A DNA stretch of 64,000 nt. It comes from an uncultured delta proteobacterium (lineage in GTDB: Bacteria; Myxococcota_A; Polyangia; Polyangiales; B10-G4). The DNA is taken from assembly GCA_963727445.1 (NCBI GenBank), contig CAVSGI010000010.1:1512621-1576620 (forward strand), read 5' to 3'. The position numbers and the translations under genes are program-made. The notes under the pieces are model-generated. The model was not told the DNA's origin. It searched no databases and worked only from the letters and a program-made list of their open reading frames with translations. Below are positions 923 through 55,402 of this stretch, piece by piece (the first letter of the stretch is position 1; each line of letters starts with the position of its first letter).

Positions 923-2686
923 TCATGGCAGGTCGAGGGCCCATGCCGGGACGACCGCACCCCGACCGGCGCACGCGCCCCCCTCGGCGCTGCTGTAGTC
1001 GCCGCGCGTTGGATCGACGAAGACCTCGGCGGTGTTGCCGACGATGTCGCTGTTCAGCTCGTGGCCCAGCCGAGCGCGGGCTTCGTCGAGCGTGAGGTGG
1101 TCGAGGCCCGTGTCGTGGCGCCGGCCGTAGGCGATGAAGTCGGTGACGTCGGTGACGTAGCAGTTGTCGTCGAAGTCGTTGTCCGTGGCGATCTGCGAAT
1201 CGGCGATGTCGGCGGCCTGGGGCACCTCACGGACGTACTCGGCCTGGTAGATCAGACCCATGTGGTTGTAGTCGCGTTCGGCGATGGCCGTGGTGAGGCC
1301 CGAGAAGACGTTGCCGCGGATGGTGTGCCCCGTGGCCCACACCCGAAACTCCAGGAACTGGTCGACGCCGATCAGCGTGTTGTTCCGGGCGGTGAAGTGG
1401 TGGCCCATGCGTTCGAAGACCTCGCCCTGGTCGAAGGGGCCGCCCGAGCCACCGAGGCGAATGCGACCGCCACCCACGACGAGATTGCCGTCGAAGGTGA
1501 TGTTCGACGGAGACCATTGCCCGAGGCTGCCGAAGTCGTGGATGACGTTTCCGGAAATGTCGAACGGACCCTCTGCCGGGTTCTTGAAGAAGAACGCCTG
1601 AGGCACGTGGTAGATGTGGTTGTTCCGGATCGTGAGCTCGCCGTTGCCGCCACAGTCTTCGATGTAGGTCTCGCAGGAGAGGGTGGTGATGGCCCCGAAG
1701 TGCTGCCCGTCCGTCGTGGTGCGCCAGTCGTGAGTGACGCCGTCGTCGATCGGGATCAGGTCGTGGAGGATGTTCGACTCGACGGTGATCGCATAGGGCC
1801 CGCCTCCGTCTCCTCGATTCACCCTGACGAGGCCGGGATTGCCGCCACCACTGGTGGCGTACTCGTAGACCTCGTTGCCACGAACGACGATGTCGTGCGT
1901 CTGGTTTCGCGGATCCGAAGCGTTGCCCGTTCCGCCGCCGATGTTGATGGCGCCCTGGTGGACGGTGATGTTCTCGATGTTCCAGTACGCCGTCTCCTGA
2001 GACAGGCTCCCCACACGGATGTTGCCAGCGCCGGACGCGCATGCGCGTTCGCCGGGAAAGGAGCGCACGGTGATCGGTTCGCTGGGCGTTCCGGACGCGA
2101 CGTCGTACGTGGTGCCACCAGCCCATGCGGGGAGACTGACGCGACCGATCGAGAGCAGGCCCCGAACCGTACCCGCACTGGAATCTCCCCAGCTCACCAC
2201 CTTGCTGTCGTGCGCGTTCGCGTCATCGTAGACGCCTCCCCTCAAGTAGATGACGTCACCGGGGCCCGCCTGGCGCACCGCTTCCTGCGGCGTCCTCAAA
2301 GGAGCCTCGAAGCTCGCGTCGTTGGCGTCGTCGCCCTCGGGTGAGACGTACCAGCACCGCCCCCCGCCCACGGCTTCGCACAGGGCCACGGCCGCTTCAT
2401 CCCGCTGGGCCGGCCGCTCGGCATCCTCGCAGCCCACGATCGGCGCCCCGCTCCCCTCTCCTCCGGGAGCGCCTTCGGGGACCGGGACCATCGTGCTCCC
2501 GTCCATCGCGCCATCGGTCGGCACTTCTGCATCGGGCGCCGGCGCGCCGCTGTCGTCGACGTCCCCTCCGCCGTCCGGGGCTGACGTTCCCGAATCGGGC
2601 GATCCTGCGGTGTCGTCACAGCCGACGAGGGTCAGCCCAAGCGACAGTCCGACGATGGAAAGGAGGGGGTTTGCCTGGATCCGCAT
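923..2686 (-). CDS. Lipoprotein with right-handed parallel beta-helix (pectin lyase-like/DUF1565-like)
   Basis: Lipobox LVGC, WYVSPEGDD...PGDVIYLRGGVY motif, repeated N-x-I/V beta rungs; paralog of 5918-7684. Confidence 0.8.
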   Translation of the reverse strand: MRIQANPLLSIVGLSLGLTLVGCDDTAGSPDSGTSAPDGGGDVDDSGAPAPDAEVPTDGAMDGSTMVPVPEGAPGGEGSGAPIVGCEDAERPAQRDEAAVALCEAVGGGRCWYVSPEGDDANDASFEAPLRTPQEAVRQAGPGDVIYLRGGVYDDANAHDSKVVSWGDSSAGTVRGLLSIGRVSLPAWAGGTTYDVASGTPSEPITVRSFPGERACASGAGNIRVGSLSQETAYWNIENITVHQGAINIGGGTGNASDPRNQTHDIVVRGNEVYEYATSGGGNPGLVRVNRGDGGGPYAITVESNILHDLIPIDDGVTHDWRTTTDGQHFGAITTLSCETYIEDCGGNGELTIRNNHIYHVPQAFFFKNPAEGPFDISGNVIHDFGSLGQWSPSNITFDGNLVVGGGRIRLGGSGGPFDQGEVFERMGHHFTARNNTLIGVDQFLEFRVWATGHTIRGNVFSGLTTAIAERDYNHMGLIYQAEYVREVPQAADIADSQIATDNDFDDNCYVTDVTDFIAYGRRHDTGLDHLTLDEARARLGHELNSDIVGNTAEVFVDPTRGDYSSAEGGACAGRGAVVPAWALDLP

Positions 2687-2748
2687 GGTGATCACTATGC
2701 GGATCTCGGGCCCGCACCACCACGCCGACGGTCTTAACCGGGCTTAGC

Positions 2749-3859
2749 TCACCAACGAATCGCCGCTCCGTCGAAGCGTACGGTGGCACCGTCGTGCCAA
2801 CCGGTACCTACGCGAAAGGATCGGATGCCGCGGTTGACCACGTCTTTCGACAGGACGCCGGTTTCACCGGAGAGAACTCGAAGCGGCACCTGGTAGCGGC
2901 GATACCCGACGTTCGCCGCGAGGGTCAGGGCCCCCACGAGGAAGAAATCCTGGCCCGAAGAGGCTGGGGTCGAAATGCCCAGCTGGGCCCAATAGCCGTG
3001 TGCGTCGCTCTCGATCGCGACGTAGAGCTCGAGGAAAGCGAGCTGAAACTGTCCTTCATCGAGGGTCAGTGGGTAGTCGAGTGCTTCGATGCGGAGGTTC
3101 TCCCAGCACGAGGGATACGGCGGGTCCACTGGATCACAGACGGGTCTGCCGTACTCCTCGCCCGACGGGTAGACATCCCGCGCGCAGTGGGCCGTCCATT
3201 CCCAGTAGTGGTCCCCGTCCTGGGCCGAGGCGCTCCCCGTTGCGAAATCGATGCACGTGGGATTCGGAGCTGCGGAATCCCGCGGACTCGTCAGCCATCG
3301 GAAAACCGAGGTCCGCTGGTGGGTTCAGGAGCACGCCGATGACGTCACTGCACGTGACGCGACTGGAGCTGTCCTCGGCGACGAGCCTGACGTGGTACTG
3401 CTCGGCGGGCGTCAGCTCGAAGAGAGTCGTCGCCACGACCGGGTCCGCGCCCGCGGCGCCCACCAGAAAACTCCGCGCCAGCTCGGGATTGTCGTCGCTG
3501 GTGACCGTTCGAAACAGCTCGCCCGCCAGGAGCTGCTCCTCGGAGGCGGCGATGTCCACCTCGTACGCGAAGAGCTCATCGAGGTTGTCCGCCTCCCAAG
3601 CGATGCGCGCTTGGCTTGCGGTGACCCACTCGACGTGGAGATTCGTGATGGTAATCGCTCCGGGCTCGGCCTCCGGTCGTCCACAGACCCCGGCCGCACC
3701 ACGCACGCAGACGTTTGCGCTCCTGTCGCACTGCCACCCAGCCGCGCAGGGACACTCGAGGCCGGTGGTGGGCACGGGCTCGAGCACGCAGCCCCCGACG
3801 ACCATCGCGAGGAGTGTCGAGAAGGCGCCGAGGACCTGGGGCAACGGCTTCTTCACCAC
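2749..3859 (-). pseudogene. Lipoprotein with Cys-rich and FN3-like regions, split by one frameshift near 3280
   Basis: GTG 3859 (TATACT 6 nt upstream), lipobox VGGC; protein-like reading continues in another frame (DSAAPNPTCIDF...YWEWTAHC...) into ORF 2749-3129. Confidence 0.65.
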
Positions 3860-3881
3860 GAGCGAAGTATAGCTGAAACCG

Positions 3882-5711
3882 TCACCGCCGCGGGCAGGCC
3901 CACTCGCCGAGGGGATACGCGCCGATGTCGACGGACGCGACGCCGAAGAACTCACCGACGCCAGCGCCGACGGCCGGGCTCGTGGCCGACAGGTGCAGGT
4001 CCGCCGGGGCGCCGACGAAGTCTGGGTCTGCCGAGATGCTGCTGCTCTCCTCGTCGAACTCGCTCCGAAACTCTGGCAGGGTGTAGGGCGTGCCCGAGTA
4101 CTCGCCGCCGGTCCAGTTCGGACGCAGATGGATGTCTGCCTGGGTGTTGTCGAAGAAGAGGTTGTTGAAGGAGCTGTAGTGCCCCACGTAGTCGTCGACC
4201 GTGGTGGTCGTTCCGCCGCTGTGGAGGTAGAACCCCGCGTCCAGGCCGGCGAAGATGTTGTTGAAGAAGCGATGGCCGGTAGGCCCATCGAAGCCCAGGC
4301 GGATGCCGACGCCGCCGCCGTAGAAGTCGTTGTTGAAGACCCAATTGTCGTCGCTGTCCTCGGCACTGCCCGGCAGGCGGACGCCGACCCGAGCGTTGAC
4401 CACGACGTTGCCGTAGATCCGCCAGTGGCCCCCTGGTCGATACTCGGCGTCCGTCGGCTGACAGCCGTCGGTGTTCGTCGCGGACCACACGCAGCGGTAG
4501 CCACCTGGCTCGAAAGCCGTGTTCACGTCGTGGATGTAGTTGTAGCGGGCGATCAGGTTGGAGACGCCGCTCTTGACGCCTATCGCGGCCTGGCCCGGGA
4601 TGTCGAAGACCTCGTTGTACTCCACGACGTGGGGGTTGTCCGGGTCGGAGACCATGAACGTGATCCCCTTGCTGTTCGAGACGCCACCCCAGTAGACGGA
4701 GTCGAACACGACGTTGTAGCGGACCAGCGCCCCTCCCGAGCTCCAGATCCGCATGCCGTAGGAGTTGTCGTTGCCGTTCGAGGTGTGACCGAAGACGTTG
4801 CCCTCCACGACGATGTCGTCGGCACCTTCGAAGAAGATGGGCTGCGGCTGCGCGTAGTAGATCTCCAGGCCACGCACGACGAGGTGGTCCGACCAGAACC
4901 GGCCGAGACCCCGCTGGCTCAGCTCGTACACCTCGTCGTTGGGGTCCTCACCCGCCGGTGGATAGAAGTAGATGAAGCAGCCTTCGTTGTCGCCGAAGCA
5001 CTGATTGCCGTCGGCGTCCGCCTTCGTCCAGTGGTCGGGGTCGACCAGGTTCGAGACGTTGTCGTGGTCCCGGCCGCCGTCGAGGTCCGACTGGTGGGTG
5101 ACCCGCCGGTCCCCATGGAACATTGCCTTCGGATCGTTTTCGAGGAACCCGGCCGGCGTGCGCCAGATGTTCGCATCGTACGACTCCCAGCTTCGTCCCT
5201 CCGTGCTCAGCGATCCGTAGATCCGCACGCGCTCGCCCGGGTATCCGCGAATGGTCACGTAGGCGGTCTCGGTCCCGTCATCGATGCCGACGTCGTAGGA
5301 GGGCTCCTCCATCACGCGGTAGAGGCCTTCGCGAATGGTGAGCGTATCGCCCGGGGTGAGGGCGGACAGGCCTTTTCGGATGCTGCGGAATGGCGACTGC
5401 ATCGTGCCCGGGTCGTCGTCGTCACCGGTGGTGGCCACGAAGTACTCGGTGCCCACGGTGGACAGCGGCGTCGTCTCGCACGAAACCGGGTCGATGCAGG
5501 CGCCACAGTCGAGGACGCACGTAGTGCAGTCTTCGCCGCCACTACACACGTCGTCGCCGCACATCGGCGCGCCCCCGGCATCTGCTCGGCCCGCCGCGTC
5601 GGGAGGGTCGCTCGCGTCCGGGAGCGGGCTCGCATCGCCTGCGCTCATGTCATTCGAGGTGGCGCAACCGAGGAGGCACACCATCAACGAGCAGTAGCAA
5701 AATCGACCCAC
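3882..5711 (-). CDS. Lipoprotein with right-handed beta-helix (DUF1565-like) and Cys-rich repeat
   Basis: Lipobox LLGC, CGDDVC...C repeat, YFVATTGDD...PFRSI...PGDTLTIREGLY, C-terminal ADPDFV...DLHL...DIGAY. Confidence 0.8.
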   Translation of the reverse strand: MGRFCYCSLMVCLLGCATSNDMSAGDASPLPDASDPPDAAGRADAGGAPMCGDDVCSGGEDCTTCVLDCGACIDPVSCETTPLSTVGTEYFVATTGDDDDPGTMQSPFRSIRKGLSALTPGDTLTIREGLYRVMEEPSYDVGIDDGTETAYVTIRGYPGERVRIYGSLSTEGRSWESYDANIWRTPAGFLENDPKAMFHGDRRVTHQSDLDGGRDHDNVSNLVDPDHWTKADADGNQCFGDNEGCFIYFYPPAGEDPNDEVYELSQRGLGRFWSDHLVVRGLEIYYAQPQPIFFEGADDIVVEGNVFGHTSNGNDNSYGMRIWSSGGALVRYNVVFDSVYWGGVSNSKGITFMVSDPDNPHVVEYNEVFDIPGQAAIGVKSGVSNLIARYNYIHDVNTAFEPGGYRCVWSATNTDGCQPTDAEYRPGGHWRIYGNVVVNARVGVRLPGSAEDSDDNWVFNNDFYGGGVGIRLGFDGPTGHRFFNNIFAGLDAGFYLHSGGTTTTVDDYVGHYSSFNNLFFDNTQADIHLRPNWTGGEYSGTPYTLPEFRSEFDEESSSISADPDFVGAPADLHLSATSPAVGAGVGEFFGVASVDIGAYPLGEWACPRR

Positions 5712-5917
5712 AGAGACCTCCTGACGTGCTGAGCGGAGGGCAATTTCGGTGTTCGCCAGCGTCTGCCTCCGCTCCCTTCACAAAGCGTGATCGCGGTCGC
5801 CGCGTCCAGGCATCGCTTCTGAGCTGCTCTGAGCTGGCCTCGGATCGTCCGCGCATCTAAGTGCGGTTAAGCGAGGCGCGGTGGCTCGCCCCAGCCTCCA
5901 TCGCCCAGGATGGAGAC

Positions 5918-7684
5918 ATGGTCGAACGAGGGCTTTGTTGCGCACTGGTCGCCTTGTGCGCGTGTACCGGGGGGGTGGTGGGCTCGACGAGCCCCGAGGA
6001 CGGAAGCGCGCCGGTACCGGCGGACGGCGGGGTCGACGCCACGAGCAGCGGCCCCGACGCCGCTCCGGATGGGGCGGCACGGGACGCGGAGATCCCACGA
6101 GATCCGGGGCCATCAGACGCCCCAGGCGGACCGATCGTCGACGCTCCCATCGTCGGCTGCGAGGACGCCGACCGTCCCGCACGCCGGCTCGCGAGCCCAG
6201 ACGAGGTTTGTGAAGCGGTGGATGGCGCGCGCTGCTGGTACGTGAGCCCCGAGGGCAGCGACGATGCTCCCGGTACCTTCGAGCAGCCGTTGGGCAAAGC
6301 GCAGGAAGCCGCCAAGCGCGTCGGGCCTGGCGACATCATCTATCTGCGCGGAGGGGTCTACGACGAGGACAACGCCTTCGTGTCCAGAGTGAACCAATGG
6401 AGCAACCCCGACGCGGGGGTGCAGCACGCCTTCTTCCGCGCGGGGTCGATCTCCTTGCCCGACTGGGCCGGCGGCGACAACTACGACGTGGCATCCGGAA
6501 CCGAGGAAGCGCCCATCGTCCTTCGCTCCTTCCCCGGCGAGCGGGCCTGTGTCTCAGGCGCAGGCGGAATCGGGTTCGGCAGCTTGAGGACCGAGATCGC
6601 CTATTGGAGCGTCGAGAACGTCACGCTCCACGGGGCCGCCATCGGCATCGGGGGCGGCCGTGGCACGGCGGACGCCCCTGAAAACCAGACGCACGAAATC
6701 ACCGTGGCCGGCAACGAGGTCTTCGGGGTTCAGGAGAGCTCCGGTCACAACACGGGGCTCGTCAAGGTCGACCGGGGAGACGGCGGCGGTCCCTACGACA
6801 TCACGATCGAGAGCAACATCCTTCATGAGCTCTATTGCCGAGACAGCGATGGGGTGGTGCGTGGATGGGACACGATGCACGACGCACAACACTACGCGGC
6901 GATCACGACGCTGAGCTGCGAGACCTACTTCGGCGTCGAATGTGGCGGCAACGGTGCGCTCACCGCTCGCAACAACCACATCTATCACGTCCCCCAGGCC
7001 TTCTTCCTCAAGAACCCGGCGGTGGGCCCGTTCCATCTCTACGACAACGTCATCCACGACATCGGGAGCATGGGGAAGTGGTCGCCTTCGAACATCACCT
7101 TCGAAAACAACCTCGTCTATGGAGGGATCGGTCGAATCGACCTCGGTGGCTCCGGTGGCAGTGCCGAGACCACGGGCGTCTACGAGCGCATGGGCCGCAA
7201 TCTGACCGTGCGAAACAATACGTTCATCGGCATGAACACCCTGGTCCACTTTCGGATCTACGCGTCCGGCCACACGGTCGAGGGCAACATCATCCAAGGT
7301 CTGTTCTCCATGGACCAGGCCGACTGGGACCACATGGGGTACATCTTCCAGTCGCAGGGATGGGTCAACCCGGACATGGAGCCCAACATCGAGCTGTCGC
7401 AGCTGGCGCGCGAAAACACCTTCGATGACAACTGCTTCATCACACCGAACCACGACTTTCTCGCCTACGGCCGTCGCTTCGATCCGGGCACCGGAACGGA
7501 GCTCACGCACCTGAGCCTCGAGGACGCCCGTACGCGCCTGTCCTACGAGCTGACCAGCGACGTCGTCGATTCGTTGGAGGAGGCGCTGGTCGAACCGACG
7601 ACGGGGGACTACCGCGTACGTGTTGACGGCCCGTGCGCTGGTCGCGGAGCCACGCCGCCCGACTGGGCCAGGTCGATCCCATGA
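5918..7684 (+). CDS. Lipoprotein with right-handed beta-helix, paralog of 923-2686
   Basis: GGAG RBS before ATG 5918; shares long blocks with the paralog, e.g. APIVGCEDA, AITTLSCETY, NNHIYHVPQAFF. Confidence 0.8.
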   Translation: MVERGLCCALVALCACTGGVVGSTSPEDGSAPVPADGGVDATSSGPDAAPDGAARDAEIPRDPGPSDAPGGPIVDAPIVGCEDADRPARRLASPDEVCEAVDGARCWYVSPEGSDDAPGTFEQPLGKAQEAAKRVGPGDIIYLRGGVYDEDNAFVSRVNQWSNPDAGVQHAFFRAGSISLPDWAGGDNYDVASGTEEAPIVLRSFPGERACVSGAGGIGFGSLRTEIAYWSVENVTLHGAAIGIGGGRGTADAPENQTHEITVAGNEVFGVQESSGHNTGLVKVDRGDGGGPYDITIESNILHELYCRDSDGVVRGWDTMHDAQHYAAITTLSCETYFGVECGGNGALTARNNHIYHVPQAFFLKNPAVGPFHLYDNVIHDIGSMGKWSPSNITFENNLVYGGIGRIDLGGSGGSAETTGVYERMGRNLTVRNNTFIGMNTLVHFRIYASGHTVEGNIIQGLFSMDQADWDHMGYIFQSQGWVNPDMEPNIELSQLARENTFDDNCFITPNHDFLAYGRRFDPGTGTELTHLSLEDARTRLSYELTSDVVDSLEEALVEPTTGDYRVRVDGPCAGRGATPPDWARSIP

Positions 7685-7854: not shown

Positions 7855-7995
7855 ACCAGGTGGTCCACCTGGTCCGGTGGTCCACCCTGCGCTCCGCCCC
7901 GAGCTTCCGGAAAAGCGTTCGATTCCCGCACCTGAGCTCGTCGGCACGCGCCGTGCTGAATCTCATCGAGCGCGACGACGCGCGGGAGGAAATCG

Positions 7996-9762
7996 ATGGA
8001 AAGAAGCGTGGGGAAAGTGTGGATCTTGGGGGTGCTGCTCGCCGTGGCGGGAGTGGGCTGCATCGAAGTCACACCGTGGCCGGGGGCAGAGGGCCCGGGC
8101 TCGGATTCGGGATCGACGATGACCGATCCCGACGCGGGCACGATGGAGCCAGAGCCCGACGCGTCCTCGGAAGTGGGCGCGGTGGGCATGTTCCTCCAGA
8201 TCGGCGACGAGACGCCCTCGCAGCTCTATGAGCTCACGGTCGACGCGGACACCTACGCGGAGATCGTCGACGCCGTGGGGCACGTGCCTGACGGCTTGAT
8301 CGAAGGCGAGCCTTCGCGCGAGCCGGGGACCCGGAGCGTCACGCCGGTCGTCTCGTCGGTCGCCGACAGTCGGATCTTCGAAGGGATCAGCCGGAGCGAA
8401 CGCGGGGCGTCGACCGATGATCTGGGCAGGATGCGGATCCTCTTCGGTGGCGGCGTCGCCCAACCGATCGGGCTCCTTCTGCCTGCAGTACAGAAGGTTC
8501 GCGCGGCCGCCGCCCGCAGCCACACCACGCTGGACCAGGTCGACTTCGAGCTCACCTTCGAGCTGCCACTCTCGGACACCGAAGTGTCGACAATCACGTA
8601 CACGGGGCTCGAGAACCAGCCCCCGCCGAGCCCGCCCCCCTTCGTCGACGTGAGCGGCGACAGCTGGGCTGCCTCACCCGAGATGAGCGACGAGCTGCGG
8701 GCGCGGCAGCTGATCGACGTGGAGACCGATTTCCGGGTCGATGGAGATCTCCGCTTCAGCCGTGCCTCGGATGGCTCCCTGCTCCTGCAGCCCTGGACCA
8801 TGGACGAGCCAGACTCGGCCGACTACACGATCTGGCGGGAGACCGGCGGCCAGCGCTCACTCGTGCTGGACATCCAGGACCGGATCGGTGGCCGTGTGCT
8901 TCACCGTTTCCGCATCCCGCGCGCCGACCTTCCGACGGACATCGACTCCGGGATGATGTCTGCGTCGATGTCCGGCTACCTGAAGATCGGGGACATCAAG
9001 GGCGAGTCCACGGACGCACGTCACGAGATCGAGCTCTTCGACACGCACTTCGTGCGGCCCCCCACGAGCACCGAGTTCGATCTGGCGCGCCGGCAGCTCG
9101 GGCTGTTGTCCACCCGCAGCACCGCGACTCTTGTCGACAGCTGGACCACCAACCGCGACGCGACCATCCGGGCACTTCGCGCGGCGAGCGTGCAGGCCAA
9201 CGATCAGGAAGGGCTCCTCTGCGTGACGATGATGCCCCTCCTCGGAGAGATGATGCTGGCGCTTCAGGCCGGTCTCGACGACGGTTCGATCCCGGAGACG
9301 CGCGAGCTTCGACGGATCCTCGCGGATTACTACGAAGCCTACGAGCTCCTCGGTGAGCCGGAGCATCACGCGTTCATCGGCGGCGACCTCGCGTCCGCGG
9401 CGTACGACCGTCCCCTCGACGCCGCGGACGCGGAGGTGGCTTGCGGCGCCATCCCGCGCATCATGGGCGTCTGGGACGACACGGACATCGTCCACATCCT
9501 CGTCGACTCGGACGCGCAGGCACTCGGTGATGACGGCAGGGACCTGCTCATCGGTGGCAGCGGTCGCTACTTCGACGACCTGGTCGTGGAGCTCATCGAG
9601 CGGTTGGACCGGCTCGCCGCCGATCCCACGAGCGAGCCGGTGGCCACACCGATCGACGCTCTGCTCATCATCAATCGGGTCGGCGAGACGCTCGACCAGC
9701 ACCAGTCACTGGCCGTCAGCCGTTACAGGATGTCGGACGTGCTCGTCAGCAGCTACCGCTGA
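7996..9762 (+). CDS. Hypothetical lipoprotein carrying many short motifs of unrelated families (see findings)
   Basis: GGAGG RBS, lipobox GVGC, 588-aa intact ORF. Confidence 0.8.
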   Translation: MERSVGKVWILGVLLAVAGVGCIEVTPWPGAEGPGSDSGSTMTDPDAGTMEPEPDASSEVGAVGMFLQIGDETPSQLYELTVDADTYAEIVDAVGHVPDGLIEGEPSREPGTRSVTPVVSSVADSRIFEGISRSERGASTDDLGRMRILFGGGVAQPIGLLLPAVQKVRAAAARSHTTLDQVDFELTFELPLSDTEVSTITYTGLENQPPPSPPPFVDVSGDSWAASPEMSDELRARQLIDVETDFRVDGDLRFSRASDGSLLLQPWTMDEPDSADYTIWRETGGQRSLVLDIQDRIGGRVLHRFRIPRADLPTDIDSGMMSASMSGYLKIGDIKGESTDARHEIELFDTHFVRPPTSTEFDLARRQLGLLSTRSTATLVDSWTTNRDATIRALRAASVQANDQEGLLCVTMMPLLGEMMLALQAGLDDGSIPETRELRRILADYYEAYELLGEPEHHAFIGGDLASAAYDRPLDAADAEVACGAIPRIMGVWDDTDIVHILVDSDAQALGDDGRDLLIGGSGRYFDDLVVELIERLDRLAADPTSEPVATPIDALLIINRVGETLDQHQSLAVSRYRMSDVLVSSYR

Positions 9763-17757: not shown

Positions 17758-19029
17758 CTAAGGCACGTCCGACGCGAGGCGGGTCATGTCGGCGCGGGTC
17801 GTGCCGGCGGGGAAGCGGGCGAGGTAGCGCTCCGCGACGGCGCGGGTGTCGGCGCGACGGCCGAGCGCTTCGAGGGCGCGGGCCCGCAGCGCCAGGCCGC
17901 GCTCTTCGAAGGGCGAGCCTTCGCCGTCGACGGAGGCTGCGTCGAGGGACGCGAGGGCGCCGGCCGGGTCGGAGAGATCCGCGAAGCGTATCGAGGCGGC
18001 GCGGAAGCCGGCGCCGACGTGTGCGGCGCCTGGTGACACGGCGACGCGATCGTAGACGGGCGCCGCTTCGGCGAAGCGCCTGAGGGCGCGGAGCGCATCC
18101 GCTTCGACGAGGCGATAGGCGAGGTCGCCCGGGCGCTCGGCGAGCGCGCGCCGCGCGGCGAGGAGGGCGGCTTCGGGATTGCCCGCAGCGATCATCGCCT
18201 GGGCTCGTTCCACCGTCGGAGGCGACTCGCGACGCGGGGTGGGAATCGGGGCGGTCACCGCCGGCTCCGCAAGCGCCACGACAGGCTCCGCCGGAGCCGC
18301 TTCCTCCGGGCGCGGCGCGACGGACGCACGCGCCTCGGCGGCGCGACGGCCGCGCGCGGACAGACGCGCATCCGGCCCGAAGTCCGTGCCGCTGCTCCAC
18401 GACTCGCCCTGCGTCAACAGCCGCGGCGCCGCGCCGGCCTCGCCGTCGCGCAGCACCTCGACGCGTCCTTCGTAAACGCGCACCGTCGTGCCGTCCTCGC
18501 GCGCGTCCACAGAGAAGATGGTGCCGAGGACGCGCACCCGGAGATCCCGCGTCTCGACCTCGAAGGTGGCGCCGTCGCCGAGTCGGGCGACGTCGAAGAG
18601 CATCGCGCCGCGGCTCAGGCTGACGCGTCGCTCGGTGTCCGTCATCGACAGCAGCTCGAAGCGGCTGCCTTCGACGGCGGTGATCCGGTCGCCGCTCGGA
18701 AGCGCGAGCTCCATCGGGTCGGCGTGCGCCGGCACCGTTTCGCCCGCCGCGCTCTCGGGCGCCGCCGGCGGAGCGGCGGCCTGCCCGGCGCTATCGCCCG
18801 AAGTCACCCACGCGAGCGTCACGAGCGCCGCGAGCGCCGCCGCGGTCGCCGCGCTCGTCGCCATCACCCAGCGCTGGCGCCGTCTCGCTCCACGGGCCCG
18901 CGCCCCGAGGGTCGCCTGGCGGATCATGCGGCGCGCGTCGGTGTCGTCGAGCGCCTCGGCTTCCGTCTCGCGCGCCAGCGCTGTCAGGGCTCCGAGGGTG
19001 CGCTCCTCGCGTTCGGAGAGCGGCTTCAC
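17758..19029 (-). CDS. FecR-domain anti-sigma factor with C-terminal TPR
   Basis: TM helix, VRVLGTIFSV...VYEGRVEV FecR motif, YLARFPAG TPR end; overlaps the sigma gene. Confidence 0.85.
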   Translation of the reverse strand: MKPLSEREERTLGALTALARETEAEALDDTDARRMIRQATLGARARGARRRQRWVMATSAATAAALAALVTLAWVTSGDSAGQAAAPPAAPESAAGETVPAHADPMELALPSGDRITAVEGSRFELLSMTDTERRVSLSRGAMLFDVARLGDGATFEVETRDLRVRVLGTIFSVDAREDGTTVRVYEGRVEVLRDGEAGAAPRLLTQGESWSSGTDFGPDARLSARGRRAAEARASVAPRPEEAAPAEPVVALAEPAVTAPIPTPRRESPPTVERAQAMIAAGNPEAALLAARRALAERPGDLAYRLVEADALRALRRFAEAAPVYDRVAVSPGAAHVGAGFRAASIRFADLSDPAGALASLDAASVDGEGSPFEERGLALRARALEALGRRADTRAVAERYLARFPAGTTRADMTRLASDVP

Positions 19030-39126: not shown

Positions 39127-39255
39127 CTCTCGAAGACCACTCTACCGTCGGGTTTCACGAACCGGTAGCTCGTTCCCACCACGGCCGAGCTCGCCTCTCC
39201 CACCCGGACATAGCCCCGCTCGACGAGCGATCGTCCAGCACGTAGCCTTCTCTGG

Positions 39256-40443
39256 GTGCAATCGAGGGACTTCGTGATAGTGCTCGCGGTCCCGCTCGTT
39301 GCGTGCGGGCGGATCCATTTCGATCCGCTTGCCGCGCCCGAAGATGCCGGGCACTGCGCGTCGGTCGATTCGGCCATGGACAGCGCCGTCGACGCGATGG
39401 TGGACGCCGACGCCGCAGAGGACGCCGACGCGATGCCAGGCGCGGTGTGTGGCAATGGAGTGATCGAGACCGGGGAAGCCTGCGACGACGGTGACCGCCT
39501 GCCCGACGATGGCTGTGATGATCTGTGCGCGGTCGAGGCGGGCTGGACATGTGGCTTCGAGCCGTCGATCTGTGCGCCGCCCGGGTTCACGCCGGTGGCG
39601 GCTGGGACGTTCATGATGGGAGCGCCTGTCGGCGAGGTGGGTAGAGTCGACACCGGCGACAACACGGAGCTGCTTCACGAAGTGACGCTGACCCGTGCGT
39701 TCATGATCCAGCCGACGGAAGTGACCCAGGAGGCGTACGCGGCGATCATGGGCTGGAACCCGAGTGAGTTCGGGCCGCTGGGTCCGGGCGCGGATTGCGG
39801 GCCCACCTGTCCCGTGGAGCGGGCGAGCTGGTACGACGGCGCGGTGTACATGAATCGACTGTCGAGGGGTGAAGGACTCTCGCCTTGCTACATCCTGATG
39901 GACGTCGTCTGCGTGGACATGACGGCCGTGACGGAACCGGTCGATTGCCAGAACGCGACTCGACTCGGCGTCGGCGCGGCCACCGTCACTCTCGGTGCTG
40001 CGACGCCTTACGAGTGCGAAGGGTACCGATACCCGACGGAGGCCGAGTGGGAGTACGCCGCGCGGGCTGGCGATCAACGCGGGACCTACGTCGGCGAGCT
40101 CACTCTGACTGGATGCGAGTCACCCAACCCCGTCTCCGATCGCATCGCCTGGTTCTGCGGCAACGCAGGCGGTACGACGCACCCCGTCGCGATGCTCGAG
40201 CCCAACGCGTGGGGCCTCTACGACGTGCTCGGCAACGTCTGGGAGCACGTGCACGATCTTCACCAACCGATCGCGGCCGGGCCGGCGACCGATCCATGGG
40301 GCCCACCGACCGACACCGATCCGGCCCGAGTCGCCAAGGGTGGCGCCTGGCTTCACTCCGCGTTCAGCGCGCGCCCCGCGAGACGCAGCCCCGCCCTCGC
40401 CCCGCAGCGGCAGGTGGGCTTCCGTGTCGCGCGCACGCTGTGA
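39256..40443 (+). CDS. FGE-sulfatase (SUMF1) domain lipoprotein with myxococcal Cys-rich repeat
   Basis: CGNGVIETGEACDDG, PTEAEWEYAARAG, NAWGLYDVLGNVWE, GFRVART. Confidence 0.9.
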   Translation: MQSRDFVIVLAVPLVACGRIHFDPLAAPEDAGHCASVDSAMDSAVDAMVDADAAEDADAMPGAVCGNGVIETGEACDDGDRLPDDGCDDLCAVEAGWTCGFEPSICAPPGFTPVAAGTFMMGAPVGEVGRVDTGDNTELLHEVTLTRAFMIQPTEVTQEAYAAIMGWNPSEFGPLGPGADCGPTCPVERASWYDGAVYMNRLSRGEGLSPCYILMDVVCVDMTAVTEPVDCQNATRLGVGAATVTLGAATPYECEGYRYPTEAEWEYAARAGDQRGTYVGELTLTGCESPNPVSDRIAWFCGNAGGTTHPVAMLEPNAWGLYDVLGNVWEHVHDLHQPIAAGPATDPWGPPTDTDPARVAKGGAWLHSAFSARPARRSPALAPQRQVGFRVARTL

Positions 40444-41401: not shown

Positions 41402-43087
41402 CTACATGGGGAAGAGAACGCCGTCGATGACGTGAATGATCCCGTTGTCGGTCCGGAGATCGACGCGCAGGACGTTCCGCACGTTGCCCGCTGCATCGAG
41501 GAGCGCTGGACCCGCCTGAACCGTGAGATCGCTTCCCATGAGTGTGGTCACGTCACTGCCGACGAGACCGGCGACGACCGAGCTATCCGCCCGCACGTCG
41601 AGGGTGTGGTAGAGGAGGACGGTGGTGAGATCGGCGCTCGTGTCCACGCCCTCGAACGCCGGATTGTGCGGCGCGAAGACCGTGAAGTCTCCATCGCCGG
41701 CGAGCGTCGTGGCGACGACGGGATCGGCGTTGAGCACGGCGTCGTAGAGCGAGCTCAGATTGGGGTACGCCGCCACCGCTTCGGCGATGGAACCGGGGAA
41801 CGCGATATCCGACGGAAGGATGATCGAGTCGACGACGTGGATGATGCCGTTGGCCGCCGGAACGTCGACCGCCGACACGGTAACGAGCCCGTTGATGACC
41901 ACCGAGCCGTCCGGAGCGGCGAGCTGCAGCACGTTGTCCGCAGCGGAGGTGAGCGTCGTCGGGGTCGTGCCAGCCTCGATGGCGGCGACGACGGCGTTCG
42001 AGTCGACAGCTCCTTCGATGACGTGGTGGAGCAGGATGTCGCTCAGGACCGAGGAGAGGTCGGCATCCGCCGGGAGCGCGGCGAAGGCATCGTTGGTGGG
42101 CGCGAAGACAGTGAGAGGTCCCTCTCCCTGAAGGGCCGAGAGAAGTCCGGCGTCGTTCACCAGGTCCGCGAGAGTGGTGAAGCCGGAGCGCACCGCCACT
42201 TCGGCGATGTCACCGGGCGGGACGAGAACGTCGTCGATCAGATGGATGACGCCGTTCTGAGTCTCGATGTCGGTGTAGATGATGTTGGTGTTCTTGCGGC
42301 TGTCGTCGAGTGCCACGGCGCCGTCGAGGTCACGCACCGCGAGGAAGGCTCCGTTCGCCGTTCGCAGGGTGGCGCTGTCGACGACCACCGATGACGCGGC
42401 CTCTTCAGCGAGCGCGTGGTAGAGAAGAACCGGATCGAGATCGGTTGGGAGCTCGACGCCCTCGAACGCCGAGTTCACCGGCGCGAAGAGCGTCCGGCCG
42501 TCGGCGCTCAGCGCTTCTACCGCGGCGGGCGTCGCCGCACCCGCCAGGGTCGACAGGCGCGGGTAGCTGGTGAGGACGTCGACGATGGTCCCAGGGAACT
42601 CGCCGGGAATCAGAACCGAGTCGATCACGTGGATGATGCCGTTGTCGGCTTCGATGTCGGTGATCGTCACCAGCGTGAGCCCGTTGAGGTAGAGATCGTC
42701 CCCGGCGAGCCCCAGGGCGATGGTGCTCCCCTCGAGGGTGGTCGCCTCGGTCAGGGTCACCGCGGTCGCGGCCGGCACCTCGCCCTCGACCACGTGATAG
42801 GAGAGGACGGCGGCGAGCGTGTCGGTGTCGAGGCCCTCCAAGAGGCCCTCGGGCAGGAGCGCGAACGCGTCATCGGTCGGCGCGAAGACGGTGAAGGGAC
42901 CCTCGCCCTCGAGCGCAGCGTCCAAACCAGTCGCTTGAAGCGCTTCGACGAGGGTCGTGAAGCGTCCGTCCTCCACCGCAACGTCGACGAGGGTCGTACC
43001 TTCGATCGGTTCGACGGGCGGAGGATCGTCGGAGCAACCCGACAGGGGGATGACCAGGAAGAGAAGTGCCAGTGCTTTCGTCGTCAT
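41402..43087 (-). CDS. Fasciclin (FAS1) lipoprotein, four repeats
   Basis: Lipobox LSGC; four T(V/L)FAP.N/D...YH...NG(I/V)IH(V/L)ID units. Confidence 0.92.
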   Translation of the reverse strand: MTTKALALLFLVIPLSGCSDDPPPVEPIEGTTLVDVAVEDGRFTTLVEALQATGLDAALEGEGPFTVFAPTDDAFALLPEGLLEGLDTDTLAAVLSYHVVEGEVPAATAVTLTEATTLEGSTIALGLAGDDLYLNGLTLVTITDIEADNGIIHVIDSVLIPGEFPGTIVDVLTSYPRLSTLAGAATPAAVEALSADGRTLFAPVNSAFEGVELPTDLDPVLLYHALAEEAASSVVVDSATLRTANGAFLAVRDLDGAVALDDSRKNTNIIYTDIETQNGVIHLIDDVLVPPGDIAEVAVRSGFTTLADLVNDAGLLSALQGEGPLTVFAPTNDAFAALPADADLSSVLSDILLHHVIEGAVDSNAVVAAIEAGTTPTTLTSAADNVLQLAAPDGSVVINGLVTVSAVDVPAANGIIHVVDSIILPSDIAFPGSIAEAVAAYPNLSSLYDAVLNADPVVATTLAGDGDFTVFAPHNPAFEGVDTSADLTTVLLYHTLDVRADSSVVAGLVGSDVTTLMGSDLTVQAGPALLDAAGNVRNVLRVDLRTDNGIIHVIDGVLFPM

Positions 43088-43125
43088 TCGGTTCACCTTC
43101 GGTGTGGGTTCGAAGCCTGGCCTGT

Positions 43126-43230
43126 ATGTGGACAATACTTGGACACCGCAAGTGGCCGGATGCGGTCGGCGATATAAATGGATGGTAATTATTGGTGTTT
43201 ATAGGAGCTCATGTAGACGAAACTTCGACA
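43126..43230. promoter_or_regulatory. Two similar 20-mers, each with 11-bp-spaced TnnACR repeats (candidate operators)
   Basis: ATGTGGACAATACTTGGACA (43126) and ATGTAGACGAAACTTCGACA (43211), 16/20 identical, in an AT-rich divergent intergenic region. Confidence 0.45.
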
Positions 43231-53729: not shown

Positions 53730-53947
53730 CGGGGGACACCACGAGCACACCTTCAGGATGCTGGGCCGGGGTCACTCGAGCTTCGGACCCGCGTCTGGCA
53801 GAGGCGCTGCGAACGACCGATTCGATCGCGCGGGGCAAAACGGAAGAAGGTGTCCGTAACCGTTCACGCCTGACGAAAGCTTGATCATCTCGATCGCTTA
53901 CGAGTTCGGAATTTACAGCGGCGAGCGGCTGTGATCTACCGTTCGAG

Positions 53948-55402
53948 GTGGACCTGGCCGCCGAGAACGCCGCGCTCAAGGCCGAACTGGCCGCGCGCGA
54001 CGCTCGTGTCGCGGAGTTGGAGGCGAAGGTCGCTCGTCTCGCCGAGCTGGAATCGGAGCTGGCGAAGCTGCGCGAGCTGCTCGGTCGTGACTCGAGCAAC
54101 TCGAATCTACCGCCGTCGAGCGACGGCCCCGGCAAGAGCCGCAATCAGCGCAAAGCCGAGCGCAGGAAGCGCAAGGTCAAGAAGCGCGGCGGCCAGAAGG
54201 GTCACGAGGGCTCGCACCGCGCGCTGCTGCCGGCCGAGCGGATGGACGCGGTCGAGGATTACTTTCCGTGCGCGTGCGGGCGCTGCGGCCGGAGGCTGCC
54301 CCGGGTCGCCGACCCACGAGCGAAGCGCTACCAGCAGACAGATCTCGATCGCGATGGAGTGTTTCGGACGGAGCACCGGCGCCACCGCGTGACCTGCCCG
54401 TCGTGTGGACACCGGACGTGGGCGACGTACGACGACAACGAGATCCCGCGTTCTCCGTTTGGCCCCGGGCTGACGAGCGCGGTGGTGCTGCTCACGGGCG
54501 TGTACCACCTGAGCCGGCGCAAGACGGTGAGCTTGTTGTGGGAGCTGCTCGGCGTGCGGATGTCGGTGGGAAGCGTCAGCGGGATCGAGAAACGGATGAG
54601 CGCAGCCGTGGCGCCCGCGGTGGACGAAGCGTGGGAGCACGCGAGAGCCGCGAGCGTCAAGCATGCCGATGGCACGACCTGGCTTCGCGCGGGCGTGGCG
54701 CTGTCCCTATGGGTCATCGCGACGGCGGCGGTCTCCGTGTTCAAGGTCCTGCCCAACGGCCGGGGCAAGACGCTGCGCGACAAGCTCTTCGTCGAGGTCC
54801 GCGGCATCCTGGTCAGCGACCGAGCGACGGCGCTGAAGTTCTGGGCGATGAAAAAGCGCCAAGTCTGCTGGGCTCACCTGCTTCGCAAGTTCGTCTCCTT
54901 CTCGCAGCGCGCCGGCCCGGCCGAATCCATCGGCAAGGAGCTGCTCGACTACACGGCGATCCTCTTCGACTACTGGTCCAAGTACCAACACGGCGAGCTG
55001 AGCCGCACGGCGTTCGTCGAGCGGATGGCACCGGTGCGTCTTCAGGTCGAGGCCACGCTCGAGCGCGCGGTGGCGATGGGCGAGGACGAGCTGTCCGGCT
55101 CTTGCGCCGACATCCTCGCGCACCGCGAGGCCCTGTGGACCTTCGTCGACCGCAACGGCGTCGAGCCGACGAACAACCACGCCGAGCGCGAGCTGCGCGC
55201 GTTCGTGCTCTGGCGCAAGCGCTCGTTCGGCACCCAGAGTGAACACGGAGATTGGTTCGCCGAGCGGATGATGACCATCGCGCACACGGCGCGAAAGCAG
55301 GGCATCGCCGTCCTCGACTTCCTCACCGCCTGCTGCGAGGCGAAGCTCGAGGGGGCAGACGCCCCGTCGCTCTTCGACCGCTCCCTTCGCGCAGCCGCCT
55401 GA
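53948..55402 (+). CDS. tnpC: IS66 transposase
   Basis: DSSNSNLPPSSD, GGQKGH, Zn finger, QVCWAHLLR, PTNNHAERELR. Confidence 0.95.
   Translation: MDLAAENAALKAELAARDARVAELEAKVARLAELESELAKLRELLGRDSSNSNLPPSSDGPGKSRNQRKAERRKRKVKKRGGQKGHEGSHRALLPAERMDAVEDYFPCACGRCGRRLPRVADPRAKRYQQTDLDRDGVFRTEHRRHRVTCPSCGHRTWATYDDNEIPRSPFGPGLTSAVVLLTGVYHLSRRKTVSLLWELLGVRMSVGSVSGIEKRMSAAVAPAVDEAWEHARAASVKHADGTTWLRAGVALSLWVIATAAVSVFKVLPNGRGKTLRDKLFVEVRGILVSDRATALKFWAMKKRQVCWAHLLRKFVSFSQRAGPAESIGKELLDYTAILFDYWSKYQHGELSRTAFVERMAPVRLQVEATLERAVAMGEDELSGSCADILAHREALWTFVDRNGVEPTNNHAERELRAFVLWRKRSFGTQSEHGDWFAERMMTIAHTARKQGIAVLDFLTACCEAKLEGADAPSLFDRSLRAAA

Follow-up and report, generated by a model that had tools for sequence, protein, structure and literature searches.

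Short signature peptides of unrelated protein families recur in a predicted lipoprotein of an uncultured delta proteobacterium and in exported proteins of several bacterial phyla

The 64,000 nucleotides of uncultured delta proteobacterium DNA analysed here (the window) contain an uninterrupted open reading frame (ORF) of 588 codons at 7996-9762 on the plus strand, which encodes a predicted lipoprotein, P0001, with ten short peptides that resemble signature segments of unrelated protein families. We found that P0001 is one case of a class of proteins that crosses phyla and is not peculiar to one gene, and that selection acts on these peptides, hereafter called words, at the level of the amino acid sequence. 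Such borrowed-word proteins are real and apparently under selection. The explanation that we favour, with a probability of roughly 0.5, is that they are exported and serve to mimic, or act as decoys for, linear epitopes that are conserved in injection machines and on planctomycete surfaces.

Ten words in one reading frame

All ten words were found in the single frame of P0001, at the positions given in an earlier note made from the letters of the window (the initial annotation). The gene and its elements, all on the plus strand, are:

7984-7989 (+): GGGAGG, a sequence like a ribosome-binding site, 6 bases 5' of the ATG
7996-9762 (+): gene for P0001, a predicted lipoprotein of 588 residues from a rare scaffold family without a name, bearing borrowed words
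7996-8061 (+): lipoprotein-type signal peptide to Cys22, judged by eye from the sequence
8413-8445 (+): VgrG-like word, the weakest (best 10-mer score 38; profile score -4.1 bits, p = 0.076)
8467-8520 (+): DUF1559 pilin-helix word with a run of rare codons, found with our own profile
8593-8613 (+): ITYTGLE word, shared with giant repeat proteins of planctomycetes
8812-8838 (+): ADYTIWR word around the scaffold-invariant Trp280, of weakly supported source
8878-8898 (+): DRIGG word, as in giant planctomycete-type proteins
8977-9024 (+): Hcp N-terminal word (PF05638 positions 1-17, E = 0.0077)
9016-9756 (+): domain predicted to form a helical bundle, in which Cys409 and Cys483 are invariant (model pLDDT 76.6, pTM 0.77)
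9472-9495 (+): WDDTDIVH word, shared with giant extracellular proteins of planctomycetes
9526-9564 (+): single RTX-type nonapeptide word
9646-9678 (+): dockerin-helix word, 11 residues identical to a PF00404 protein
9724-9756 (+): second Hcp word, where the last predicted helix ends

We compared the words with chance expectation using hidden Markov models (HMMs) built from planctomycete proteins for Hcp (12 sequences), VgrG (24), RTX (21), DUF1559 (26) and dockerin (4). The first three sets were collected by Pfam family, and the DUF1559 and dockerin sets by motif, hence these two are partly circular. P0001 matched four of the five models at 5 bits or more (26.4, 16.2, 14.9 and 9.2), against a mean of 0.002 matches and a maximum of one in 500 shuffles of its sequence, so that the words as a set withstood the shuffled controls proposed for them. 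Among 1412 control ORFs of the genome, 1405 matched no family and six matched one; P0001 alone matched more than one. In a six-frame scan of the genome (81,323 open stretches) with three of the profiles, the top score of each fell within P0001. The runner-up was a second lipoprotein-like gene of about 239 residues (G000:C17:95367-96083, plus strand), in which a DUF1559 word scores 11.3 bits and an Hcp-like stretch is also present.

When 10-mers were compared, ungapped, with the sets free of circularity, five peaks reached a score of 38, four of which are predicted words, compared with a mean of 1.2 and a maximum of three peaks in 40 shuffles. Of 47 tiles, one matched its predicted family in Pfam and one an unrelated family (control tiles, 1 of 82), none of 23 tiles matched in NCBIfam, and whole P0001 matched neither database. 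The tile filters are too coarse for words of 8-15 residues.

We were able to assign eight of the ten words to source families, two of them to Hcp and the rest to DUF1559, RTX, dockerin and giant planctomycete surface proteins. The first Hcp word covers positions 1-17 of the 129-position PF05638 model at 16.9 bits (cut-off 23.5), and matches residues 8-25 of PA0085 (PDB 1y12). The second reaches a 10-mer score of 41 to real Hcp, yet only 0.6 bits by HMM, and has no match in the PDB; the proposed Hcp source held for both. The RTX word was likewise upheld by both the 10-mer test and our own HMM, as one word only, without the tandem nonapeptide repeats of PF00353. The DUF1559 match is confined to positions 6-26 of our own profile, and P0001 has no prepilin N-terminus, PF07596 body or H-X9-DG end (PF07596/TIGR04294). 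For ITYTGLE, an origin in large repetitive proteins was borne out by six copies of I[TS]YTGLE in the giant repeat proteins that a single Pirellulaceae genome encodes (one of five planctomycete genomes), with none in the control. The VgrG-like word has its 10-mer peak, but is not significant alone by HMM, and the Gp5 OB-fold domain PF04717 was not found. Of two proposed dockerin words, TPIDALLIINR stands by its identity to the PF00404 protein, in P0001 with no acidic calcium loop before it and no Pfam PF00404 match, whereas the ADYT word is weak: ADYT[IV]WR was absent from 5 and from 61 planctomycete genomes (66 genome searches), and its two matches in a viral collection, one in a dockerin-like context, are weak.

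Two source assignments had to be changed. A flavin amine oxidase origin of DRIGGRV found no Pfam match and no FAD-binding domain, and giant planctomycete-type proteins match the word instead. WDDTDIVH, previously of unknown source, co-occurs with DRIGG in giant planctomycete-type extracellular proteins (L091, L207). It also occurs by chance in an apparent polymerase gene (L090:1501-1524), which we take to be that of a negative-strand RNA virus.

No word extends into its parent domain, as first noted: P0001 belongs to none of the families quoted by its words (Hcp, DUF1559, dockerin, RTX, VgrG). The host genome as assembled (9.47 Mb, 69% GC, 85.6% complete) has no Hcp gene and no DUF1559-sized profile match, so the words look foreign.

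A rare scaffold with interchangeable words

A search of 1.84 billion representatives with P0001 gave 30 matches, eight of which form a scaffold family, with 79% identity end to end for P0002 and 24-35% for the others. The background of P0001, described earlier as unassignable, thus aligns with eight relatives. The family is rare: no relatives were found in 60 related genomes with the protein as query in 400 genomes of the class with the family profile, or in 300 genomes with the DUF1559-word pattern, and profile and region searches beyond these returned P0002 only. A metagenome scan gave five weak loci (E = 2e-4 to 3e-4), which were not used. A hydrophobic leader ending in Cys is also present, by eye, in P0002, P0005, P0014 and P0028.

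In the alignment the words replace scaffold residues, mostly with no insertions or deletions and often around a pre-existing residue, such as the invariant Trp280 within the ADYT word and GGxV within DRIGGRV. P0002 retains eight words by pattern, with alternative family-like residues. The DUF1559 core is kept in all eight family members that cover the site. Elsewhere words are exchanged: the VgrG-like word is altered in P0002 and an RTX-like word lies near that site in P0003, at a site other than the RTX site of P0001; P0015 has an FG-GAP-type word where P0001 has its first Hcp word; and five distant members have a KADxLI word beside the dockerin-word site of P0001. Words thus swap at fixed sites within the scaffold family, and do so in unrelated ortholog sets as well, as the check for motif swaps among homologs had been meant to reveal.

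The 22 matches outside the family share words only, often in tandem. NCBIfam recognizes Hcp and H-X9-DG fragments in P0021 and VgrG and tail-tube family fragments in P0024, and P0027 may be a mosaic with a genuine DUF1559 start.

The AlphaFold model of P0001 is poor in the N-terminal half (mean pLDDT 58), while the last four words fall inside the predicted C-terminal helical bundle. The second Hcp word is helical in the model and a strand in Hcp itself, so its native shape is seemingly not kept; the RTX and WDD words lie in a low-confidence stretch. Foldseek found no match to the model at E = 0.001, VIA-align with the bundle found generic helical bundles only (best Z 9.1, root-mean-square deviation 4.2, 145 aligned residues), and a protein atlas gave no usable match for P0001 or P0014.

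Word carriers across phyla

We searched 185,579 species genomes for a single pattern, the DUF1559 word preceded by a non-pilin residue, and obtained 76 loci, with the word in 77 ORFs of 75 loci. Of these ORFs, 27 are real DUF1559 genes, six are chance antisense matches in streptomycetes and 44 have no DUF1559 body; removal of one truncated DUF1559 gene and one half of a gap-split gene left 42 carriers in 28 scaffold clusters. By record label they belong to eight phyla (Acidobacteriota, Bacteroidota, Pseudomonadota, Planctomycetota, Chloroflexota, Verrucomicrobiota, Actinomycetota and Thermodesulfobacteriota), with one further label that is doubtful. Five come from isolates that have a name or a strain designation; isolate genomes with this vocabulary include those of Algoriphagus sediminis, Croceibacterium salegens, Lysobacter cavernae and Devosia nitrariae.

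After masking of the word used for ascertainment, a further Hcp or DUF1559 word is found in 14 of the 42 carriers. These amount to 17 in 14,060 in-frame residues versus two in 70,132 off-frame residues, and since both off-frame matches are the continuation of a gap-split gene, the true off-frame count is zero. Among neighbouring ORFs, 8 of 148 also score, seven of them plainly carriers themselves, including one dockerin-word gene of an Algoriphagus isolate. Reduced 8-mers common to unrelated scaffolds number 43, compared with 9.5 after shuffling (maximum 18 in 30 shuffles). Additional words presumably resemble signatures of EF-Tu, RRM, TonB boxes and tail tubes. Export routes differ among carriers (lipobox, signal peptide, PEP-CTERM), and 28 of 42 are signal-like by a crude rule.

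In a viral collection, the Hcp-word pattern was absent and the DUF1559 word had 15 matches, all in genuine DUF1559-type genes; thus, no phage-borne carrier was found.

Selection on the peptide

Several lines of evidence bear on whether the words are maintained as peptides or arrive as DNA. The GC content at third codon positions of the words tracks that of their own ORF (Spearman 0.82, n = 44 ORFs), and silent divergence in the word relative to its flanks is normal over 12 homolog pairs (odds ratio 0.83, p = 0.39); a higher silent divergence in the word, with a pooled p of 0.009, was lost once the data were stratified by pair. The 97% amino acid identity of the word in ortholog pairs is circular, as the scan required the word.

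The closest pair, L055/L067 (two adjacent genes), differs in five word blocks, with pN of 0.37 in the blocks versus 0.17 elsewhere and pS of 0.30 versus 0.26. Unchanged residues keep the same codon in 26 of 32 cases within changing words and in 230 of 287 outside them. When codons were redrawn from host usage, inherited bases exceeded the expectation for a foreign donor in the three blocks tested (p = 0.049, 0.0006 and 0.0002). In one block 13 of 15 residues are swapped with no insertion or deletion between near-identical flanks. Where the words of P0001 and P0002 differ, at 17 residues, 13 need only a single base changed to give the residue of the other protein.

The atypical codons remarked on in the initial annotation are real. 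The Arg codon AGG makes up 3 of 11 Arg codons within the words of P0001 and 0 of 32 outside (p = 0.013), all three at sites changed relative to P0002, and the codons of the words are rare when pooled (p = 0.006), also with the DUF1559 word excluded (p = 0.045). The proposed comparison of word DNA with planctomycetes was positive for the dockerin word, 28 of 30 bases of which are identical to a planctomycete copy, though to only one of nine.

Together, words that occur in frame only, use host codons, show normal silent divergence and, in one close ortholog pair, change codon by codon indicate that selection acts on the peptide, and wholesale capture of DNA is disfavoured as the main process. 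Of the two readings originally offered, surface display or decoy fits the in-frame peptides, mostly exported proteins and site swaps, while DNA capture does not fare well as the principal source. Re-templating from foreign DNA may now and then serve as a source of variation for single words, but it cannot account for the strict frame, the concentration in few genes and the long conservation.

Interpretation and alternative explanations

Sites of the scaffold have been rewritten into words of contractile-injection proteins (Hcp, VgrG) and planctomycete families (DUF1559, dockerin, RTX, giant repeat proteins), and in eight phyla many exported proteins that are unrelated to one another have acquired one vocabulary and keep it as peptide. 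In the explanation that we favour, an old, rare, membrane-anchored lipoprotein scaffold would have become a display board for foreign linear epitopes, its words arising and being refined chiefly through point mutations, one step at a time, that positive selection favours. Such stepwise gain would imply that something outside the cytoplasm reads the words; a putative extracytoplasmic factor would bind them sequence-specifically as short or unfolded peptides. This reader would most likely be a sensor, adhesin or enzyme of another organism (a competitor, predator or phage), and P0001 may decoy, jam or fool that recognition machinery by mimicry. A broader claim, which we hold more tentatively and slightly below even odds, is that a widespread bacterial system reads short linear epitopes of conserved foreign proteins, which exported proteins would display as decoys or false signals.

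Several observations weigh against mimicry of this kind. At 85.6% completeness, native Hcp or DUF1559 genes could be missing from the assembly. No neighbour is common to all carrier loci, and the P0001 locus has no telling neighbour gene. Words that we take to be those of cytoplasmic proteins (EF-Tu, RRM) occur, which a surface-only mimic would not predict. Some carriers (P0020 type) have no signal peptide, and the crude signal rule is positive in 67 of 148 neighbours too. The codons of LLPAVQKV, in the DUF1559 word, are rare (p = 8e-5) and form the most extreme 8-codon window of the P0001 gene, a run that long purifying selection does not explain. Finally, the case for point mutation comes from one genome pair, with blocks picked after inspection and a direction of change that the pair does not determine; two of the five blocks keep neither of two shared codons, and three speak against block replacement.

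An alternative is that the words are tags or ligands for machinery of the host itself, either substrates of methyltransferases or self-ligands of sensor kinases and extracytoplasmic function (ECF) systems that detect foreign injection machines or lysed neighbours. A methyltransferase gene of the PF10119/PKMT (protein lysine methyltransferase) type lies within about 400 bases of 5 of the 42 word genes (L028, L035, L036, L080 and L066, the last with a divergent PKMT-type gene), on three independent scaffolds and in genomes with only one or two PF10119 copies each. A second methyltransferase family flanks L014, L016 and L044 (Bryobacteraceae), LytS-type kinases adjoin L019, L022 and L071, and PF07638 (ECF) sigma factors adjoin L023, L055 and L067. 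All three lysines of mature P0001 lie within words, and KmtA/PKMT enzymes methylate surface proteins, as described in parts of a preprint (10.1101/2024.05.15.594293). However, the host genome has no PF10119 match at its 85.6% completeness, none of 23 independently collected PF10119 loci (20 with about 1.5 kb on each side) has a word gene in its short flanks, and eight of the ten words are lysine-free. We therefore consider host tagging or self-sensing unlikely. The idea that P0001 is a lysine desert was dropped: 42% of lipoprotein-like ORFs in the genome are equally lysine-poor.

Less probable again is that the words are working mini-modules, sticky strands or helices that stand in for subunit interfaces and either join in the assembly of foreign tubes, spikes, pili and adhesins or poison it. 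The source families are, from general knowledge, mostly polymer-forming or docking, more than one segment of the Hcp domain is represented by recurrent words and many carriers have tandem copies, but native shapes seem lost in the model, with the second Hcp word helical and the RTX and WDD words of low confidence, and the dockerin word has no calcium loop.

We think it improbable, more so than interface mimicry, that short patches of environmental DNA, annealed at microhomologies as in SPDIR (short-patch double illegitimate recombination), write the most frequent coding k-mers into genes under weak constraint, to little or no functional effect. Words do overwrite sites of prior likeness in register, their sources are high-copy families, the rare-codon run and the 28-of-30-base match to a planctomycete copy are as capture would leave them, and SPDIR mutations are documented. 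Against this, no off-frame or antisense copies were found, words are concentrated in one of 1412 genes, the DUF1559 core is kept despite a background identity of 24-35%, codons are inherited inside changing words, and the host genome contains no donor, just as the VgrG-type word is present only once in the genome of L055. As a sole cause SPDIR-like capture is already weakened.

Chance resemblance or a chimeric assembly, to which the weakness of the VgrG and ADYT words alone and the 46 of 47 Pfam tiles that miss their own family might point, is hardly credible given the shuffle and genome controls, the independent 79% homolog end to end and the same vocabulary in isolate genomes, and is refuted for the class of carriers.

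Relation to known systems

P0001 shares two words with Hcp/TssD (PF05638) and one weak word with VgrG, but has neither their domains nor their fold nor a type VI secretion system (T6SS) locus, and its genome has no Hcp gene. With the DUF1559 (PF07596) prepilins of Planctomycetota it shares the helix word that follows a pilin-like N-terminus, and differs in having no N-methylation motif, PF07596 body or H-X9-DG end.

In short-linear-motif mimicry by pathogens and in phage decoys, short peptides come to resemble motifs of proteins to which they are unrelated, and presumably engage the partners of those proteins. Such mimics, in the examples known, copy one or a few host motifs, whereas word carriers are free-living, span many phyla and draw on one vocabulary of family signatures, with up to ten words per protein on unrelated scaffolds.

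A comparison can be drawn with OmpB of Rickettsia and AtaA of Acinetobacter, surface proteins that PKMT/KmtA enzymes methylate, in that PKMT-type genes adjoin 5 of the 42 carriers, with none found in the P0001 genome; no borrowed motifs are described for PKMT/KmtA substrates in those parts of the preprint (10.1101/2024.05.15.594293). Hypervariable bacterial binding proteins diversified by diversity-generating retroelements (DGRs) have been proposed, in sections of PMC10907252, as sensors of foreign antigens. [quoted passage not shown] SPDIR microindels in Acinetobacter baylyi are, like the words, short in-register replacements at microhomologies; they would be expected to be largely blind to frame and gene, whereas words are strictly in frame and in few genes. 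We found no description of borrowed-word proteins in open-licence PubMed Central and bioRxiv.

The convergence of unrelated exported proteins from at least eight phyla on one word set implies a strong common selective agent that reads linear peptides, and no such agent is described in the literature searched. If the broader claim holds, the system would be a bacterial pattern-recognition repertoire directed at injection machines, planctomycete surface families and even EF-Tu, and the set of borrowed words would be a direct read-out of its targets. The vocabulary can be mined from databases and used as experimental bait, and the words give a way into the study of both DUF1559 and the giant surface proteins of planctomycetes. 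They also call for caution in annotation: carriers are named after a fragment, as in P0021, labelled DUF1559 domain-containing on about 20 residues, and both motif-based and language-model annotation can be misled.

Surroundings and further observations

The ORF of P0001 has gene-like base use by codon position (GC 0.68, 0.47 and 0.87), with no promoter or plus-strand terminator consensus. The gene, on a 1.58-Mb contig, stands by itself, with a beta-helix gene on one side and an opposite-strand ankyrin gene on the other, and T6SS families were absent among the 65 window ORFs scanned. The window also encodes a series of secreted beta-helix and fn3 proteins 5' of the gene (923-7684), a FecR-TPR protein (17758-19029), an FGE-sulfatase-like protein (39214-40440), a four-fasciclin protein (41405-43198) and an IS66 transposase (53885-55399).

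Elsewhere, the L014, L016 and L044 loci share a cassette with a layout like that of ribosomally synthesized and post-translationally modified peptides, in which a 510-residue methyltransferase precedes a 190-residue protein with three word copies and no signal peptide. A PF10119 domain lies between Hcp and VgrG genes at G465:C1:405096-417409, a possible link to the T6SS, and another about 14 kb from Hcp and VgrG genes at G458:C49:414838-430406. The planctomycete-class genome G450 has 35 VgrG-type PF04717 matches and three Hcp matches.

Among carrier loci, L037 has 71% GC though labelled Oceanobacillus, so the label or the assembly is doubtful. Secreted carriers of Chloroflexota and Bacteroidota (L052, L070 and L021:2453-2881) include a word that we take to be the conserved stretch of EF-Tu. 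Three viral-collection contigs of 26-34% GC (L102, L103, L105) contain complete DUF1559-type genes. Tiny ORFs at L066:4872-5051 and L083:3273-3488 have the DUF1559 word after a leader and may encode exported one-word peptides; the leaders, with no match in Pfam, are presumably of double-glycine and nitrile-hydratase-like type. Lastly, PEP-CTERM proteins of Rubrivivax at L041:3047-3730 and L053:6313-6942, each beside a word gene, consist mostly of Hcp and FG-GAP words.

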